64,000 nt of DNA. It comes from a virus. Location of the stretch: the IMG/VR virus record IMGVR_UViG_3300010354_000070, positions 6,807 through 70,806 of that record; one strand, written 5' to 3'. The notes below the pieces were generated by a model, which did no database searches, was not told where the DNA came from, and saw only the letters and a list, made by a program, of their open reading frames with translations. The stretch's first letter is position 1; every line of letters starts with the position of its first letter. Positions 6,401 to 17,396 of the stretch are shown piece by piece. Both the position numbers and the translations under genes were made by a program.

Positions 6401-8575
6401 TTAGGCAACAAGTTCAATAAACTCTCCCAAGATTTTCTTATTCATTTTTTTAGAACTCAAACTCCTCGCAAAAGCAGATTTAATCTGAGTTTTGGATGCG
6501 TCTTCGGCAACAGAAAATACTGTGCTTGCGTTAAGAGCATTAGAAGAAAGACCAAAGTAACTATGATAACCAGAGGTTTTGATTGAAAAACTCTTTTGTT
6601 TTTTCCAAGTTTCCATAATCTTCCTGTGCTCCTCTGCATTACTAACCTGAGAGCGAAGAAAATTACTCACATCTCCTGACTTAAGAATACGCATACCAAT
6701 AAAATTTACATCTGAGAAATTATCACGAAGATTGCGAATAAGAAGATTAGTAAAATCACAGTATTCGTAATCTTGTAGCCTATAAACATTTCCAGTTTTT
6801 CTATCCCTCAAAAATGTATTGCTTGGATTGACAGTATTCAGACCAGTATAAGGTTTATCTGGATTACGATAAGGTTTAATCAAAACGTGTCTTTTTAGTG
6901 GTGCTGCTTCACCATCTGTCAGAATTACACACTGAACTTTTTGTAATTTATTTTCGCTTTTGAATTGTGGAATAATTTGATGAAGAGTTACCAAAGTTTC
7001 ATTCAGTGGAGTTCCAGAAAGTGTCATCTTACGAGGAACATAATATTCTGTTCCATAAGAATTTCGGTGTGTTTTAGCAATCCTATAAATGTTAATCATT
7101 TGCTTCTCAAGTTCTTTTGAACTTACTTTACTCGTGAAAATATTCATCAAAGAAAAAGTACAATCAACCTCAAGAAGACCCTCTTTTGCTTCATAATATG
7201 AAATTGGAGTAAAAGTTCCTGGCAGATACTGACAACCCCAATCATTAGTAAAAGCATAAACTTCAAATGGAATTGAAACTTTCTTACAGAACCAAATCAG
7301 ATTATAAAGTTGCTTGATAGTATCAAGAAAAACTTCACCCATTGAACCAGACCAATCAAGAATAAAAATTAGTCCGTGATTTTTTCCATCCGCAAGAGTG
7401 GTTACTTTCTTAAAGATATCATCATTATACTTATAAGTATGAAGAATAGACGTATTTAAAATTCCTGTTTTTGAAATTGATGCCCGAGCATAACTGTCTG
7501 CTGCTTTGCGGCATTCAAATTCTTTTACAAGATAATTGACTTCTTTTTGAGAAGAACGCTTGAACTTTTGATAATCTTTATCTACTTCATCAAATAATTC
7601 TGGATATTGACGATACTCAATTTGGTCCTGCCAACTCTGATTACAGTGGTCGTGAATTTCTTTATTTGATACGATTACCTTTTCCAAATCAACTTTAGGA
7701 AGTTCAACATAAGTATTCTCAACTCCAGATGAATTCTTAGCCAAATCACGAATAGAGTTTTCTAAACTCTCCATAGTTTTGGCAATTGGTTCTCCACCTT
7801 TTGTTCCCGCATTTGAAGTGTCGGCATCATTGATTTGATTATTTTCACTTTCAGAAGGACTTTGTTTCAGTGAAGGTTTGCTATTACCTTCAGTCTCACT
7901 GGTCTCACTGTCTTCATTTACATCATTATCACCTTCTTCCGATGATGTGTCGGAATCAGAATCATCAGATGAACCACCACCATTTTCCTCATGAGAATTA
8001 ATGGAAGAAATCTTGGTTTGTTCGTCCTGTTTTTGCTTACAATACTTATAAAGTTCTTCTGCGGCAACTAAAACATCATCAAACGTTTCGGTTTCGGCAA
8101 TCATATCAACAATATGCTGCTCTTCAGCATTAAAATTCAATCTCAGAAAATTACCAATCTTGAAAAAAAGATTTACCCTATCAGCAAGATTATAAGTATC
8201 AAGATTGTCATCTTTAATAGAAAAGAAATCCTGGTCGTTGAGTTCTTTATATCCATTATAAAAAGTTTTTGCGAGACCAGCATACCGACGCTTCATTAGT
8301 TTTTCTACACGAGCATCTTCACAGATATTTACAAAACTCGGTGGAATGTTGTAGTCTTTGGACCAGTCAATATTGGGCGTTTCACGAGAATGTCCCACTT
8401 CATGTGCTACAAGAAGTGAATAGATATTATCACTTGCTTTTTCCCAAAGTGGCAGCGTCAGACAGCGGGTATGAACGTTGAAGCAGGCGGTTTCGACTTT
8501 ACGATGTTCCACAATAATGTCTTCTGTTGCCAAAAGACGGGCAAGCATACCCTTAATTTCAAGATTGACGGTCAT
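6401..8575 (-). CDS. CobT-like VWA-domain protein with N-terminal HExxH domain (partner of the CobS/MoxR ATPase)
   Basis: AHEVGH, NICEDARVE, acidic linker, MIDAS motif LDWSGSM...GTPL...LTDGE. Confidence 0.85.
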   Translation of the reverse strand: MTVNLEIKGMLARLLATEDIIVEHRKVETACFNVHTRCLTLPLWEKASDNIYSLLVAHEVGHSRETPNIDWSKDYNIPPSFVNICEDARVEKLMKRRYAGLAKTFYNGYKELNDQDFFSIKDDNLDTYNLADRVNLFFKIGNFLRLNFNAEEQHIVDMIAETETFDDVLVAAEELYKYCKQKQDEQTKISSINSHEENGGGSSDDSDSDTSSEEGDNDVNEDSETSETEGNSKPSLKQSPSESENNQINDADTSNAGTKGGEPIAKTMESLENSIRDLAKNSSGVENTYVELPKVDLEKVIVSNKEIHDHCNQSWQDQIEYRQYPELFDEVDKDYQKFKRSSQKEVNYLVKEFECRKAADSYARASISKTGILNTSILHTYKYNDDIFKKVTTLADGKNHGLIFILDWSGSMGEVFLDTIKQLYNLIWFCKKVSIPFEVYAFTNDWGCQYLPGTFTPISYYEAKEGLLEVDCTFSLMNIFTSKVSSKELEKQMINIYRIAKTHRNSYGTEYYVPRKMTLSGTPLNETLVTLHQIIPQFKSENKLQKVQCVILTDGEAAPLKRHVLIKPYRNPDKPYTGLNTVNPSNTFLRDRKTGNVYRLQDYEYCDFTNLLIRNLRDNFSDVNFIGMRILKSGDVSNFLRSQVSNAEEHRKIMETWKKQKSFSIKTSGYHSYFGLSSNALNASTVFSVAEDASKTQIKSAFARSLSSKKMNKKILGEFIELVA

Positions 8576-13858: not shown

Positions 13859-14332
13859 CTATTGAGACTTATAAAGGTCCTCAAGTTTTTTACGAGCATC
13901 TTTAACAGAAGAAATATAACCCATCTTAGAAGAAGGTTTTACTTTACCAGAGACAGAAGAACTAATAGCATCTATAATATCTTCATCATTACCACAAATA
14001 TAATTTTCATATATTGCTATAAGTTTATCATCTTTAGTTTCTGTCATTGTTATAATTTTATCCATACGAATAATAAAAATATCATCATTTGAAGTTTCAA
14101 TCCAAGATTTTGCTTTTACAAACATACCTCTTTGATTGGTAATTATTTTCATTACTATTGGATTTTGGAGAATAACAATTGGGTCTCCATCATTTTCATC
14201 TGTCATAGATACAGCAAATATTTCTTCACCAGATACTAGTTTAATGACAGCATAGAACTCTTCACTAACAGGACTTTGTTTTTTAATTTCTTTTCGTTTT
14301 CTTTTAAAAATATTCTTAAGTAGTTTAATCAT
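13859..14332 (-). CDS. Conserved hypothetical protein between uvsW and gp55
   Basis: EEFYAVIKLVSGEEIFA...NPI...MGYISSVKDARKKLEDLY. Confidence 0.75.
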   Translation of the reverse strand: MIKLLKNIFKRKRKEIKKQSPVSEEFYAVIKLVSGEEIFAVSMTDENDGDPIVILQNPIVMKIITNQRGMFVKAKSWIETSNDDIFIIRMDKIITMTETKDDKLIAIYENYICGNDEDIIDAISSSVSGKVKPSSKMGYISSVKDARKKLEDLYKSQ

Positions 14333-15221
14333 TTTTGATTGGTATATTTACTATATCGTAGTTAAAGTTTTCTTCATTATAAATTTTAATTCTTTCAATT
14401 AAGTGATTTAAGGTATAATTTTTTCTTGACTTGTAACTAATATCATCAGCAATGTCATATAATGTTGCTTTTGTTTTCTGATTACTTTTTCTTAGAACTC
14501 TTCCTATTGATTGTAAATTACGAACTCTAGATTTTGAAGGTGAAGCAAAAATAACATTATGTAAATTTTTAATATTAATGCCAGTGCTAAAAGTTCCATA
14601 AGACGCAACAATAATTGCGTCATTTTCTTTTTCTGTAATTTCTCTTACTTTTTCTCTATCATCAACATCCACTCCACCATGAATAAAGAATATTTTACGG
14701 TTCATAATATTATTACTTTTATTTATTAACTCATATAAAGGCTCTCCGTGTGTTTCTACACGATTAAAAAGAACTAGAGTGTTTCCTTTTAAATCTAAAC
14801 AAAGATTTTTTATGAAATTATTTCTTTTAGAATGATTAATCAAATATTGAATTTCATCCTCATATGTTTCAAATCTATTTGGTTGATGTTTGAGTAATAA
14901 AACTTTAATATCAAGAGTAGCAAGATGACCTTTTTTCATAAGTTCATCTGTGTTAATAATTTTATATGATGGTCCAAATAATCCTTCTAAAACCCATTTA
15001 TGAGTTTGGGACCCATCAAGAGTTCCAGTAAATCCAAATCTATATTTTGCATTATCACATTTAGTCATTATAGATACTAAGGATTTACTTTTAAAAATGT
15101 GACATTCATCACCAACTATCACATTAAATCTGGAAAAGTATTGCTTGGGGAGTTTGTAAATGGACTGCCAAGTGCTGCAAATTACATTTGGTATTTGGTG
15201 TTGTATTTTTCTAATTTTCAT
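14325..15221 (-). CDS. uvsW: UvsW helicase, C-terminal fragment of a split gene
   Basis: STWQSIYK, GDECH (motif II), FGFTGT (III), SYGTFSTGINI (V), QSIGRVLR (VI); no Walker A. Confidence 0.92.
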   Translation of the reverse strand: MKIRKIQHQIPNVICSTWQSIYKLPKQYFSRFNVIVGDECHIFKSKSLVSIMTKCDNAKYRFGFTGTLDGSQTHKWVLEGLFGPSYKIINTDELMKKGHLATLDIKVLLLKHQPNRFETYEDEIQYLINHSKRNNFIKNLCLDLKGNTLVLFNRVETHGEPLYELINKSNNIMNRKIFFIHGGVDVDDREKVREITEKENDAIIVASYGTFSTGINIKNLHNVIFASPSKSRVRNLQSIGRVLRKSNQKTKATLYDIADDISYKSRKNYTLNHLIERIKIYNEENFNYDIVNIPIKND

Positions 15222-15930
15222 TTTTAATTTTTTTAATAATTGTATTTGATAATGGTCCTCTTTTTGGAATTTTCCCAGAAAGAATGTAATTGAATGTAGA
15301 TAAAGAACAATTAAGTACTTGGTCGCAAATTTGTTTTGTAGTCAAATCATTATCAATTGAAATCCAAGTATTACCAAAATCTAAACTATATTCGTACCTA
15401 TACTTTTTACACAAATAATGATTTTTCCCACTTGTTTTTTCAACTTTTTTCTTAACAATGTTTTTATCTAGCATTGGATTATTTGTTACAAAAATATTTG
15501 TTCCATTTTTTTCTCTATTTGATATGGTTTTTTCATGAATTGATTTATTTTTAAATGGGGAGTTTATTTTTGACCATTCTTTCAGTTCTTTAATTCTTTT
15601 TTCTTGTAAAATTTGATATAATCTACTATTATAGTTAAAATTTGTTTTTATTGTTTTCATACTCATAGCATTAATAGCACAAAGCATTTTATAATAATCT
15701 TGATTTTTGGTGAATTTTGTTAAACATAAATGACATATATAATGTTCTTTTGGCGTTAATTTTATAATATTTTCTTTTTCGTCACTTCCACCCATTGATC
15801 TTGGTATTATATGGTGATTTTCTCCTTCAGAAATTGGCGAATTAATTCTATTGATTATTATATTTTTATACCAATTTAAATATTTGTTATTTTTTAATGG
15901 TTGATAACCATCTATCGTCAATTTCATCAT
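15211..15930 (-). mobile_element. Free-standing HNH homing endonuclease (MobE-like) inserted in uvsW
   Basis: ENHHIIPRSMGGSDEKENIIKLTPKEHYICHLCL HNH motif; basic C-terminal DNA-binding segments; overlaps both uvsW halves. Confidence 0.9.
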
Positions 15931-16639
15931 CTTCGTTCAATTCTCTTGCTAATTTTTTCTTGTTATTTATGAGATTTATAGTTTGATTGCCATCAAACTT
16001 ATATTGATTGCCATCAACAGTAGTTACATAAACCGATATCGGTTCTCTTTCCTTTCCACCATAAATTTTGTGGCAATATGAACCAACATCCCAACCATAA
16101 TCTAGAAAATCTTTATAAATTTGCTCTACGAGGGATGTCGTTGGCACAATTACGAGAATATTTTGTGACTTCTCAACGTAATACCTCACAATTCCATAAA
16201 TCATCAGAGATTTACCCGAAGCAGTTGGAGATATTAATAATTTTCTATTATGTCTTAGAGCGTCGTATACTCCCTCAACTTGATATTCACGGGGAGTATG
16301 AGAACAAATAGAATTTAAATAATCCCTTACACCTTCTTTTGAGATATGTTCGTTAACTTCAAAAGGAAGACCATAATACTTATTATCACGAAACTCATAA
16401 GTATAATCGTGATTTTTGCAAAAACTTATAACTTTATCTAAAAGACCGATATAAATTTCTTTTGTATTTACATTAAATAAGTAAATTACTCCATCCCACC
16501 ATTTGTTCTTATAGGCAGGAGAGAATTTAGCGTTTGGAACTTCAAATTGAAAAGCATCTCTTAACTCATAATAGATATGAGGTTCTGTTTCAATTTGCAA
16601 ATATACTTCATTCTTTTTTGATATAATCAAATGGGACAT
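15887..16639 (-). CDS. uvsW: UvsW helicase, N-terminal fragment of a split gene, with an approximately 51-aa foreign C-terminal tail
   Basis: WDGVIYLF, PREYQ (Q motif), SPTASGKS (Walker A), IVPTTSLVEQ. Helicase homology ends at HKIYGGKERE. Confidence 0.92.
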   Translation of the reverse strand: MSHLIISKKNEVYLQIETEPHIYYELRDAFQFEVPNAKFSPAYKNKWWDGVIYLFNVNTKEIYIGLLDKVISFCKNHDYTYEFRDNKYYGLPFEVNEHISKEGVRDYLNSICSHTPREYQVEGVYDALRHNRKLLISPTASGKSLMIYGIVRYYVEKSQNILVIVPTTSLVEQIYKDFLDYGWDVGSYCHKIYGGKEREPISVYVTTVDGNQYKFDGNQTINLINNKKKLARELNEDDEIDDRWLSTIKK

Positions 16640-16695
16640 TCATAAAATATCAGTTATGAATATTTATTTGTAATAAAAAAACTTGTTTTTAATAA

Positions 16696-16935
16696 TTAAA
16701 CACCAGGAATAACTCGATTAAGACGTGAATTTGGATGATCATGCAATCTTTGTGCAATTATAGCGGGAATACCCGAATTCGATCCTAATGGGACTATAGG
16801 TTTAATAGGTCCAGCAGAACCACCCGCTCCTGGTTTTAAAGAGCGATTAAAAAATGGTAATGGATTATTTTTGTTTTTTGTAGGTGGATTAGTTTGCTCC
16901 ATACAACTATCTAAAAACTGATTAAAGGTCTTCAT
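16696..16935 (-). CDS. Small late protein with a capsid-targeting-like N-terminus
   Basis: MKTFNQFL resembles the T4 internal-protein targeting sequence; CTAAATA at 16962-16968. Confidence 0.65.
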   Translation of the reverse strand: MKTFNQFLDSCMEQTNPPTKNKNNPLPFFNRSLKPGAGGSAGPIKPIVPLGSNSGIPAIIAQRLHDHPNSRLNRVIPGV

Positions 16936-16964
16936 TTCTACTTAAAAAACTTTAATATTAATAT

Positions 16965-17396
16965 TTAGTTATACCCAGCCGTGAATTTCATAAACTCAAT
17001 GCTATTTTTAATTTGATACGATCTATTTGATATGACTTTAATTATGTCTTCTAAAAACTTAAGCATCACATCATAATATTTGATTTTCATCTCCATTCTA
17101 GAAATCCTCTCATCAGCGTCCATATGCCTCTGTAATGCCTCTTTGTCTCTTACTTTATAAGGGAATGGTTCTTCAGCATAAACCTCTACAGGTGCCTTTC
17201 CAGTGTAGTAATTGTAGCGTTCTAATCTGACCTTATTGTAAGTATCTAATGCTTTTTCTTTTAGTAAAGTGATGGTATTATAAATCGTATAATACTTAGA
17301 ATGAAGTTGTGAAATTTTTAAAGATTCCTCATGCAAATTGTCTGGATCAATAATGCAATCTTTTTCCCACATTTCTTGTATTTTTTCCAAATCCAT
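16965..17396 (-). CDS. uvsY: Recombination mediator UvsY
   Basis: MDLEKIQEMWEKD...LHSKY...YYTGKA...NRSYQIKNSIEFMKF. Confidence 0.93.
   Translation of the reverse strand: MDLEKIQEMWEKDCIIDPDNLHEESLKISQLHSKYYTIYNTITLLKEKALDTYNKVRLERYNYYTGKAPVEVYAEEPFPYKVRDKEALQRHMDADERISRMEMKIKYYDVMLKFLEDIIKVISNRSYQIKNSIEFMKFTAGYN

Follow-up and report, generated by a model that had tools for sequence, protein, structure and literature searches.

Candidate split-intein remnants flank a MobE-like homing endonuclease gene that divides uvsW in a T4-like cyanomyovirus

We analysed a 64,000-nucleotide stretch of viral DNA (the window; positions 6,807 to 70,806 of the IMG/VR record IMGVR_UViG_3300010354_000070) in which the helicase gene uvsW is split by a mobile cassette. 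The cassette holds a free-standing MobE-like homing endonuclease gene of the HNH kind, and it adds a tail of 51 residues to the N-terminal half of UvsW (N-half) and a head of about 9 residues to the C-terminal half (C-half). Comparisons of sequence profiles and of a predicted fold make it well supported that the tail is a remnant of the C-terminal ~40 residues of an N-intein, block B included, and that the head descends from the first strand of a C-intein. Judging from the residues that are left, it is also well supported that no splicing is possible, every catalytic residue being gone. The explanation that we favour, and consider rather probable as a whole, is that these are dead split-intein stubs that have kept an association role and now serve a two-chain enzyme.

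Intein descent of the tail and head

The minus strand carries the N-half, the HNH open reading frame (ORF) and the C-half in the interval from uvsY to the gp55 neighbourhood; they overlap and are in three different frames. The features are the following.

15887–16639, minus strand: uvsW N-half, 250 residues, ending in GKERE plus the 51-residue tail
16043–16639, minus strand: N-extein part (N-half residues 1–199), with the UvsW_N domain and helicase motifs I and Ia, ending in GKERE
15887–16042, minus strand: tail (N-half residues 200–250) and stop codon, 51 residues, a putative splicing-dead N-intein remnant
15887–15930, minus strand: tail/HNH overlap of 44 nucleotides, read as the tail DEIDDRWLSTIKK in one frame and as the HNH start MMKLTIDGY in another
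15211–15930, minus strand: free-standing MobE-like HNH homing endonuclease gene, 239 residues
14325–15221, minus strand: uvsW C-half, 298 residues, starting MKIRKIQHQIPNVICSTWQ
15195–15221, minus strand: head of the C-half, about 9 residues (MKIRKIQHQ), similar to the strand with which split-intein C-fragments begin
14325–15194, minus strand: C-extein part, with the strand xVICSTWQ, motifs II–VI, RecA-like domain 2 and the C-terminal part; Pfam Helicase_C and ResIII, phrog_9690 at 3.9e-102
15171–16042, minus strand: whole inserted cassette, 872 nucleotides, delimited by the cassette-free allele of sequencing run X7

Residues 13–199 of the N-half align with residues 12–198 of T4 UvsW (2OCA; E 1.9e-22), and residues 9–291 of the C-half align with residues 204–498 (E 1.1e-55). 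Because the two halves together cover T4 UvsW 12–198 and 204–498, no helicase residue is missing. Because the same match excludes residues 200–250 of the N-half and residues ~1–9 of the C-half, these segments are foreign to UvsW, and neither has a counterpart in the UvsW of T4, Synechococcus phage S-SRM01 or P-SSM2. The identity of the split gene is given by the N-terminal domain, the two RecA-like domains, motifs I–VI and the uvsY–uvsW–gp55 neighbourhood, and Pfam recognises UvsW_N (1.6e-14), ResIII and DEAD in the N-half. The break falls within RecA-like domain 1, in the loop ahead of the TWQ-bearing strand. An earlier reading of this DNA, made from its letters and ORFs (the sequence-only reading), had described the tail after GKERE, the MKI head and the division of the gene, and all of these statements are borne out by the ORFs and the T4 alignment.

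The first lead to intein descent of the tail came from UvsW N-fragments, P0032 among them, that carry a real N-intein at helicase motif II, the matching C-intein being found downstream in loci L011–L013. An hhalign comparison of the tails with seven uvsW motif-II N-inteins gave P 2e-4. We searched a profile built from 14 tails against 1.84 billion representative proteins and obtained 59 hits at E ≤ 1e-3, including real N-inteins on ribonucleotide reductase (RNR) N-fragments (P0173, P0177 and P0178; E 2.8e-4 to 9.3e-4) and a 58-residue fragment of the RNR N-intein kind (P0168). Pfam Intein_splicing scores 21.6–24.7 bits on the three N-fragments, which is under its cut-off. Aligned as families, 19 tails and six RNR split-intein N-fragments match by hhalign at 97.5% and E 5e-12 over 37 columns, with tail positions 4–41 mapping onto 73–109 of the final 112 N-fragment residues. 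At the RNR fractured-gene loci L029, L031, L033 and L035 the N-intein ends read ...EIEFEDGNVYKFTGNHKLKT.NGWKKVEDLTEEDEI..., and the C-inteins start MKIKKINK in L029, MKINKIKR in L033 and MKIKRITR in L035. The heads resemble these C-intein starts and read MKI[KRT]KI in 13 of 13 loci.

The fold points the same way. AlphaFold2, run without templates on the tail alone, predicts four strands and a short helix at a predicted local distance difference test score (pLDDT) of 87.9. When this model was compared with known structures by VIA-align, 35 of the 36 rows at Z ≥ 2 were inteins or hedgehog Hint domains (best Z 5.0), superposing with a root-mean-square deviation of 1.9–3.1 over 43–49 residues on residues 54–97 of the Npu DnaE N-fragment and on equivalent segments (including 4qfq, 6qaz and 8ubs). 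Only part of a Hint fold appears to be present, the tail model corresponding to the C-terminal half of N-fragments. The sequence-only reading had seen a likeness of the tail to Hint block B and of the head to the start of a C-fragment, and this likeness is upheld by the hhalign match, by the library-wide profile search and by the template-free fold.

What would be needed for splicing is absent at both ends. Block A is missing: the tail opens with Pro200, and some 70 N-intein residues are without counterpart. At the TxxH position of block B the window reads D-G-N-Q as against T-G-N-H in real inteins, and His stands there in none of the tails compared. The head runs for about 9 residues, after which Ile-Pro-Asn and the native strand follow, with no blocks F or G, no terminal Asn and no +1 Cys, Ser or Thr. 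The real C-inteins that we fetched have 35–40 residues and end in HN or AN, with Thr, Ser or Cys as the next residue. The absences listed in the sequence-only reading (a block A nucleophile, TxxH, block F, and a terminal HN or HQ followed by Cys, Ser or Thr) are therefore correct by sequence. Because all of the splicing residues are absent, no peptide bond would be expected to form between the halves, and UvsW would be a two-chain protein. An Rfam scan of 14000–17000 found no group I or group II intron; at E ≤ 1 it returned only two chance-level rows, one from a microRNA family and one from a CRISPR repeat family. A promoter and terminator scan stayed at shuffle level, with 20 promoter-like matches against 17.4 expected and 2 terminator-like matches against 0.8.

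Coverage by phrog_16259 suggested another origin for part of the tail, namely that VYVTT is a diverged duplicate of the native strand VIITT. We rejected this, as hhalign gave P 0.06–0.1 over 1–5 columns and the cassette-free X7 allele shows the counterpart of the native strand to be IPNVICST of the C-half. Separately, the tail DNA of the window contains a near-exact 14-nucleotide direct repeat (15987–16027, minus strand, 21 nucleotides apart) that encodes DGNQ twice (VDGNQYKFDGNQ). The repeat is peculiar to the window; the relatives read EDGIQ...(D/E)GN(E/Q), without a repeat in the DNA.

The insertion is a discrete mobile cassette

The source record (70.8 kb) is that of a freshwater T4-like cyanomyovirus, and S-SRM01 (80% nucleotide identity) and P-SSM2 are the closest named relatives of its uvsW region. 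Both have a single UvsW of 487 residues at the corresponding place with the same neighbours (72–83% identity), and the N-extein part of the window is 83% identical to the N part of S-SRM01 UvsW. Near-identical DNA is present in 20 public runs from 14 studies, labelled mostly as freshwater, river or lagoon metagenomes and also as aquaculture, freshwater-sediment, drinking-water and mine-drainage samples. In four of four runs from four studies, contigs span the cassette and both of its junctions with 1–6 differences.

A contig from run X7 (depth 28, its shorter side 50 letters long) passes from position 15170 to 16043 by way of 27 other letters, which on the minus strand encode TDSQVIITT, the sequence of intact UvsW. 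Because X7 is a DNA run and the codons differ, this joined form is a cassette-free DNA allele and not spliced RNA; the runs holding near-identical DNA included no RNA datasets. The same contig sets the limits of the insert at 15171..16042, because it joins the flanking positions. The cassette comprises the tail, the HNH gene, the head and the diverged native-strand codons (IPNVICST replacing DSQVIITT), and with its limits and mobility established it is shown to be a discrete mobile element. The eight codons 3' of the head (15171–15194) differ from those of the X7 allele at most positions, whereas the flanks agree to 90% or more; such a pattern would be expected of a target site altered so as to escape the nuclease of the cassette, or of a flank acquired by co-conversion.

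The ORF between the halves falls in phrog_655 ('homing endonuclease', 3.6e-34), and across 79% of its length it shares 30% identity with the annotated mobE of RB3 and other T4-group phages. Pfam HNH scores 19.6 bits on it, just under the 21.4 cut-off, and the gene looks active. The full 70.8-kb record holds one tail and one complete HNH copy. A second HNH fragment, 37% identical, lies at the start of the record (bases 2–196, outside the window) and is ended by the contig edge.

A search with the HNH protein retrieved 8 loci from IMG/VR and 15 from metagenomes, some of them cut by contig ends and a few being the same contig twice. The tail–HNH–head arrangement stands at this uvsW site in seven of the eight IMG/VR loci and 13 of the 15 metagenome loci, and the remaining three (L010, L027 and L028) are distant HNH genes in other contexts. 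Even at HNH protein identities of 60% (L023) and 42% (L025 and L026) the arrangement is retained. A word-based protein search found many N-halves of 250 residues, 59–75% identical, with the tail conserved, as it is in every relative found; no longer protein bearing a window-like tail appeared in that search at E ≤ 0.01, and IMG/VR yielded no close relatives of the variant tail of P0027.

The tail-profile search widens this picture. Its hits are clusters at 50% identity, and 43 of the 59 are UvsW N-halves with a terminal tail. One of these, P0148 (603 residues), contains a complete LAGLIDADG intein within motif I (Hom_end_hint 1.2e-22) as well as the tail at the usual break, which amounts to two generations of mobile elements within one half-gene. 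Two short fragments of 76–80 residues (P0136 and P0150) have tail-like ends, and seven hits are unrelated repeat proteins. In P0161 (189 residues), a fragment of the UvsW C-domain, the tail is at a second uvsW site. P0169 (738 residues) is the N-part of the DNA polymerase III alpha subunit (dnaE), with PHP and DNA_pol3_alpha domains, and ends in the tail, as does P0172 (175 residues), a Cys-rich protein with no Pfam match. These three proteins suggest that the stub-bearing cassette moves between genes and sites.

In P0166, a UvsW of 516 residues, the break of the window holds no endonuclease gene but is bridged in frame by the tail, a linker of 14 residues and a strand resembling the head; the C-end of the protein is formed by another tail, placed at a different site, in RecA-like domain 2. 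P0166 is a singleton among 5.8 billion proteins and comes from one 2356-nucleotide contig, so the fusion may be an assembly artefact, and our search for further fused forms of this kind returned none besides P0166. The sequence-only reading had proposed that metagenomes be searched for the tail–HNH–MKI cassette, for fused versions and for complete inteins at the site. The cassette is found repeatedly at the same uvsW site, and P0166 is the single fused form; no complete intein was found at this site.

To compare the parts of the locus we pooled Nei–Gojobori counts over eight close loci. The synonymous divergence (dS) of the exteins is near saturation and the pooled pairs are non-independent, so the values of dS and of the ratio of nonsynonymous to synonymous divergence (omega) are rough figures.

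N-extein: dS 1.81, omega 0.15
Tail, 41 codons outside the HNH overlap: dS 0.73, omega 0.195
HNH gene: dS 0.83, omega 0.156
Head, codons 4–11: dS 0.71, omega 0.24
C-extein: dS 1.84, omega 0.13

Despite this roughness the contrast between cassette and exteins is clear. The tail and head belong to the mobile cassette, because their dS matches that of the HNH gene and not that of the exteins and because the cassette-free allele lacks them. The spread of the cassette is more recent than the divergence of the host gene, because its dS is under half of the extein dS. The tail is shown to be under purifying selection in its own frame: the ratios for the same DNA in its two alternative frames are 0.85 and 3.8, and synonymous changes make up a share of 0.37 of the differences in six non-overlapping pairs, where 0.195 is expected (binomial p 4e-8). 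This frame-specific selection excludes plain read-through junk. The head is also under purifying selection (omega ~0.2). The tail/HNH overlap, kept in every locus that holds both ORFs, has a dS of 0.14, low as double coding predicts. At the other end of the HNH gene, its stop overlaps the ATG of the C-half by 11 nucleotides (15211..15221). The last 14–16 tail codons and the first 3–4 head codons are thus double-coding.

Possible roles of the two stubs

In the mechanism that we propose, the 872-nucleotide cassette, sitting in a loop of RecA-like domain 1, divides uvsW into two halves that would be translated separately, and the stubs that flank the endonuclease gene become the 51-residue tail of one half and the ~9-residue head of the other. 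Tail and head descend from the endonuclease-proximal parts of a split intein and together make up most of the second pseudo-symmetric Hint unit. Two such units are described in the gp41-1 intein; the last part of the N-fragment and the first part of the C-fragment form the second, and the network of charges believed to initiate fragment association has been located there (Beyer et al. 2019, 10.1101/546465). The tail, with its acidic end, and the basic head may then pair as split-intein fragments do, by electrostatic capture and strand pairing. The acidic patch of the tail carries a charge of −3 to −6 and the head one of +2 to +5 in 11 of 11 loci. The paired stubs would dock or stabilise the two helicase halves, allowing a two-chain UvsW to function unjoined, and a cassette that carries such a repair kit of its own could settle in essential genes without splicing.

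By analogy with the association of real split inteins, and given the charge complementarity, a clasp of the two halves by tail and head is plausible. The tail shares its fold with gp41-1 and Npu DnaE, and a further likeness is that the charges where the N-fragment ends complement those where the C-fragment begins; those two are full splicing Hint domains, whereas the uvsW stubs amount to about half of one and would not splice. A complex prediction from tail and C-half alignments, made without control runs, scored 0.08 where the mark is 0.32, and we count it neither way on binding. A broader version of the proposal, which in our estimate falls a little short of probable, takes the stubs to be a portable tag for non-covalent heterodimerisation: a domesticated split-intein 'capture module' that would let the cassette settle in surface loops of essential genes (two sites in uvsW, dnaE and others) without a splice site that bears a nucleophile.

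Several observations weigh against the proposal. On the side of descent, the VIA-align Z values, at 5 or less, are modest on the tool's own scale. The Foldseek comparison that the sequence-only reading had suggested gave, for the 51-residue model, E-values that were all above 1, with inteins as the well-superposed rows. A search of PDB sequence profiles with the tails found no intein (the best match was a designed ubiquitin variant at E 0.05), and Pfam run on the window tail alone found no family, and so no Hint, at E ≤ 1; because of this, the grounds for the intein link are the match of the tail family as a profile and the fold, and not a single sequence. Our searches also found no ancestor combining a complete split intein with this HNH family, and no complete intein at this uvsW site. 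The most distant pair of tails, L023 and L025, has no synonymous excess (proportions of 0.39 for synonymous and 0.49 for nonsynonymous differences). On the side of function, the tails of the split NrdA of Aeh1, to which we return below, are described as essential for activity and unneeded for heterodimer formation (Crona et al. 2010, PMC3045599). AlphaFold2 folds the tail confidently without the head, so that a complementing strand is not obviously needed; the head has only ~9 residues, and the HNH stop, which overlaps its start, restricts three of its codons; and, with the break inside one RecA-like domain, the halves have an extensive native interface in any case.

Some of these points would be accommodated if the tail were a selected intein-derived mini-domain with a job other than clasping the halves, an alternative that we regard as unlikely, yet as one to be taken seriously. 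It might stabilise or solubilise the N-half, rebuild the damaged surface, contact a replication or recombination partner, or serve the endonuclease. Purifying selection shows a function at the protein level and does not say which, and the tail model is self-contained at its pLDDT of 87.9, on a weaker linker (residues 191–200, mean pLDDT 62). The Aeh1 NrdA tails, dispensable for the heterodimer, are reported to be needed for higher-order assembly (PMC3045599), which also suits a role of this type. A job confined to the tail fits less well with the fact that tail and head always co-occur and derive from segments that pair in real split inteins, with the complementarity of their charges in all 11 loci, and with the single fused form P0166, in which one chain has both.

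That tail and head are functionless baggage of the homing endonuclease, conserved through recent spread and through overlap with the HNH frame, strikes us as quite improbable. The low cassette dS, less than half that of the exteins, and the double-coding ends would be expected under this account. It is contradicted by the omega of 0.195 in the 41 tail codons that do not overlap the HNH gene, by the frame-specific signal, significant in independent pairs at p 4e-8, and by the persistence of the motif pattern at 42% HNH identity (L025 and L026) and over 43 clusters at 50% identity. It would be more surprising still if covalent full-length UvsW were made, by non-canonical trans-splicing or by removal of the cassette from the RNA, and we give this very little credence. 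The stubs are of intein origin on our reading, and relatives L011–L013 do have working-looking split inteins at uvsW motif II; against this, the locus lacks the nucleophile, the block B Thr and His, blocks F and G, the terminal Asn and the +1 Cys, Ser or Thr, its three ORFs lie in three frames with no intron by Rfam, and the only joined form is a cassette-free DNA allele with different codons.

If the stubs do dock the two halves, as in the association role that we favour, they would represent a splicing element decaying into a purely structural assembly tag. This would explain how homing endonucleases reside in essential genes at sites without a splice-competent residue, and would provide small natural heterodimerisation tags (~45 and ~10 residues) for protein engineering. 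Should the broader capture-module reading hold, it would constitute a widespread third route, beside RNA splicing and protein splicing, by which insertions of mobile elements are neutralised. The size of the family, with 43 clusters at 50% identity in uvsW alone, would make this a common feature of aquatic phage genomes and not a curiosity.

Relation to known split genes and other elements near uvsW

The uvsW locus represents a widespread variant that combines the gene order of fractured genes with the split logic of Aeh1, the well-supported intein descent of the tails being the new part. In Aeh1 the order is nrdA-a, mobE, nrdA-b, and the tails derived from the mobE insertion are described as essential for the split NrdA (Crona et al. 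2010, PMC3045599). The likeness is close: in both cases an essential gene of DNA metabolism in a T4-like phage is split by a gene of the MobE-family HNH kind, the tails at the new termini belong to the insert, there is no splicing, and the two tails are oppositely charged. The polarity of the charges is reversed, however, the tail of the N-fragment being basic and that of the C-fragment acidic in Aeh1. The host gene differs as well, and the nrdA tails have been characterised biochemically, whereas those of uvsW are known from sequence.

Crona et al. speculated that the Aeh1 tails are degenerate intein remnants, and the database searches that they report matched nothing (PMC3045599). For the uvsW tails, in contrast, intein descent can be demonstrated, and the locus and its relatives supply the sequence and fold evidence which that idea lacked. 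The sequence-only reading had called this way of neutralising an insertion possibly undescribed. Such novelty does not extend to the tails as such, since tails on a mobE-split NrdA and a speculative intein origin for them are in Crona et al. 2010 (PMC3045599); it holds for the intein descent, demonstrable here and without a match there. Our literature search, which covered texts outside supplements and subscription journals, found no paper on dead split-intein stubs on a split uvsW or on intein descent of such tails.

In fractured genes, the two parts of a split intein are separated by a homing endonuclease gene that stands free (Dassa et al. 2009, PMC2677866). The uvsW locus shares with them the order of N-half, endonuclease gene and C-half on one strand, the occurrence in phage-like environmental DNA, and a tail and head homologous to the end of an N-intein and the start of a C-intein. 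It differs in that the inteins described there are complete, with Cys1, TGNH and a terminal HN followed by Cys, Ser or Thr, and presumably trans-splice, whereas the uvsW stubs miss ~70 N-intein and ~25 C-intein residues and all catalytic residues. The endonucleases in the real fractured-gene cases that we fetched are SegE-like GIY-YIG, TnsA/Vsr-like with NUMOD3, or unassigned, and not HNH. Among the hosts of fractured genes that we know from Dassa et al. 2009 (PMC2677866), uvsW does not figure. A further parallel is the split topoisomerase of T4 (gene 39, mobA, gene 60), taken up in the discussion of Crona et al. 2010 (PMC3045599): a Mob-family endonuclease splits an enzyme gene there too, and the products have tail-like extensions with a similar charge pattern. 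That discussion reports no intein relationship for them.

Other mobile elements lie near uvsW in related phages. Three loci (L011:3311–5320, L012:3302–4980 and L013:3299–6126) have a seemingly complete uvsW split intein at motif II (DE|C ... HN|CH), about 30 residues downstream of the break in the window. Between its halves L011 has only a 53-residue ORF, and L012 and L013 have NUMOD3 and TnsA-like endonuclease genes. In L011 the homologue of the late sigma factor gp55 (L011:5874–7322) measures 482 residues against ~173 in the window. Its insert begins with Cys, gives a weak LAGLIDADG_3 match (E 0.0014, below the cut-off) and is probably an intein. Free-standing GIY-YIG-like ORFs with the YIGKG motif occur at L005:416–1177, between the major head gene and gp3, and at L024:1618–2259, directly upstream of the uvsW N-half. 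The uvsW region thus appears to be a hotspot for homing endonucleases.

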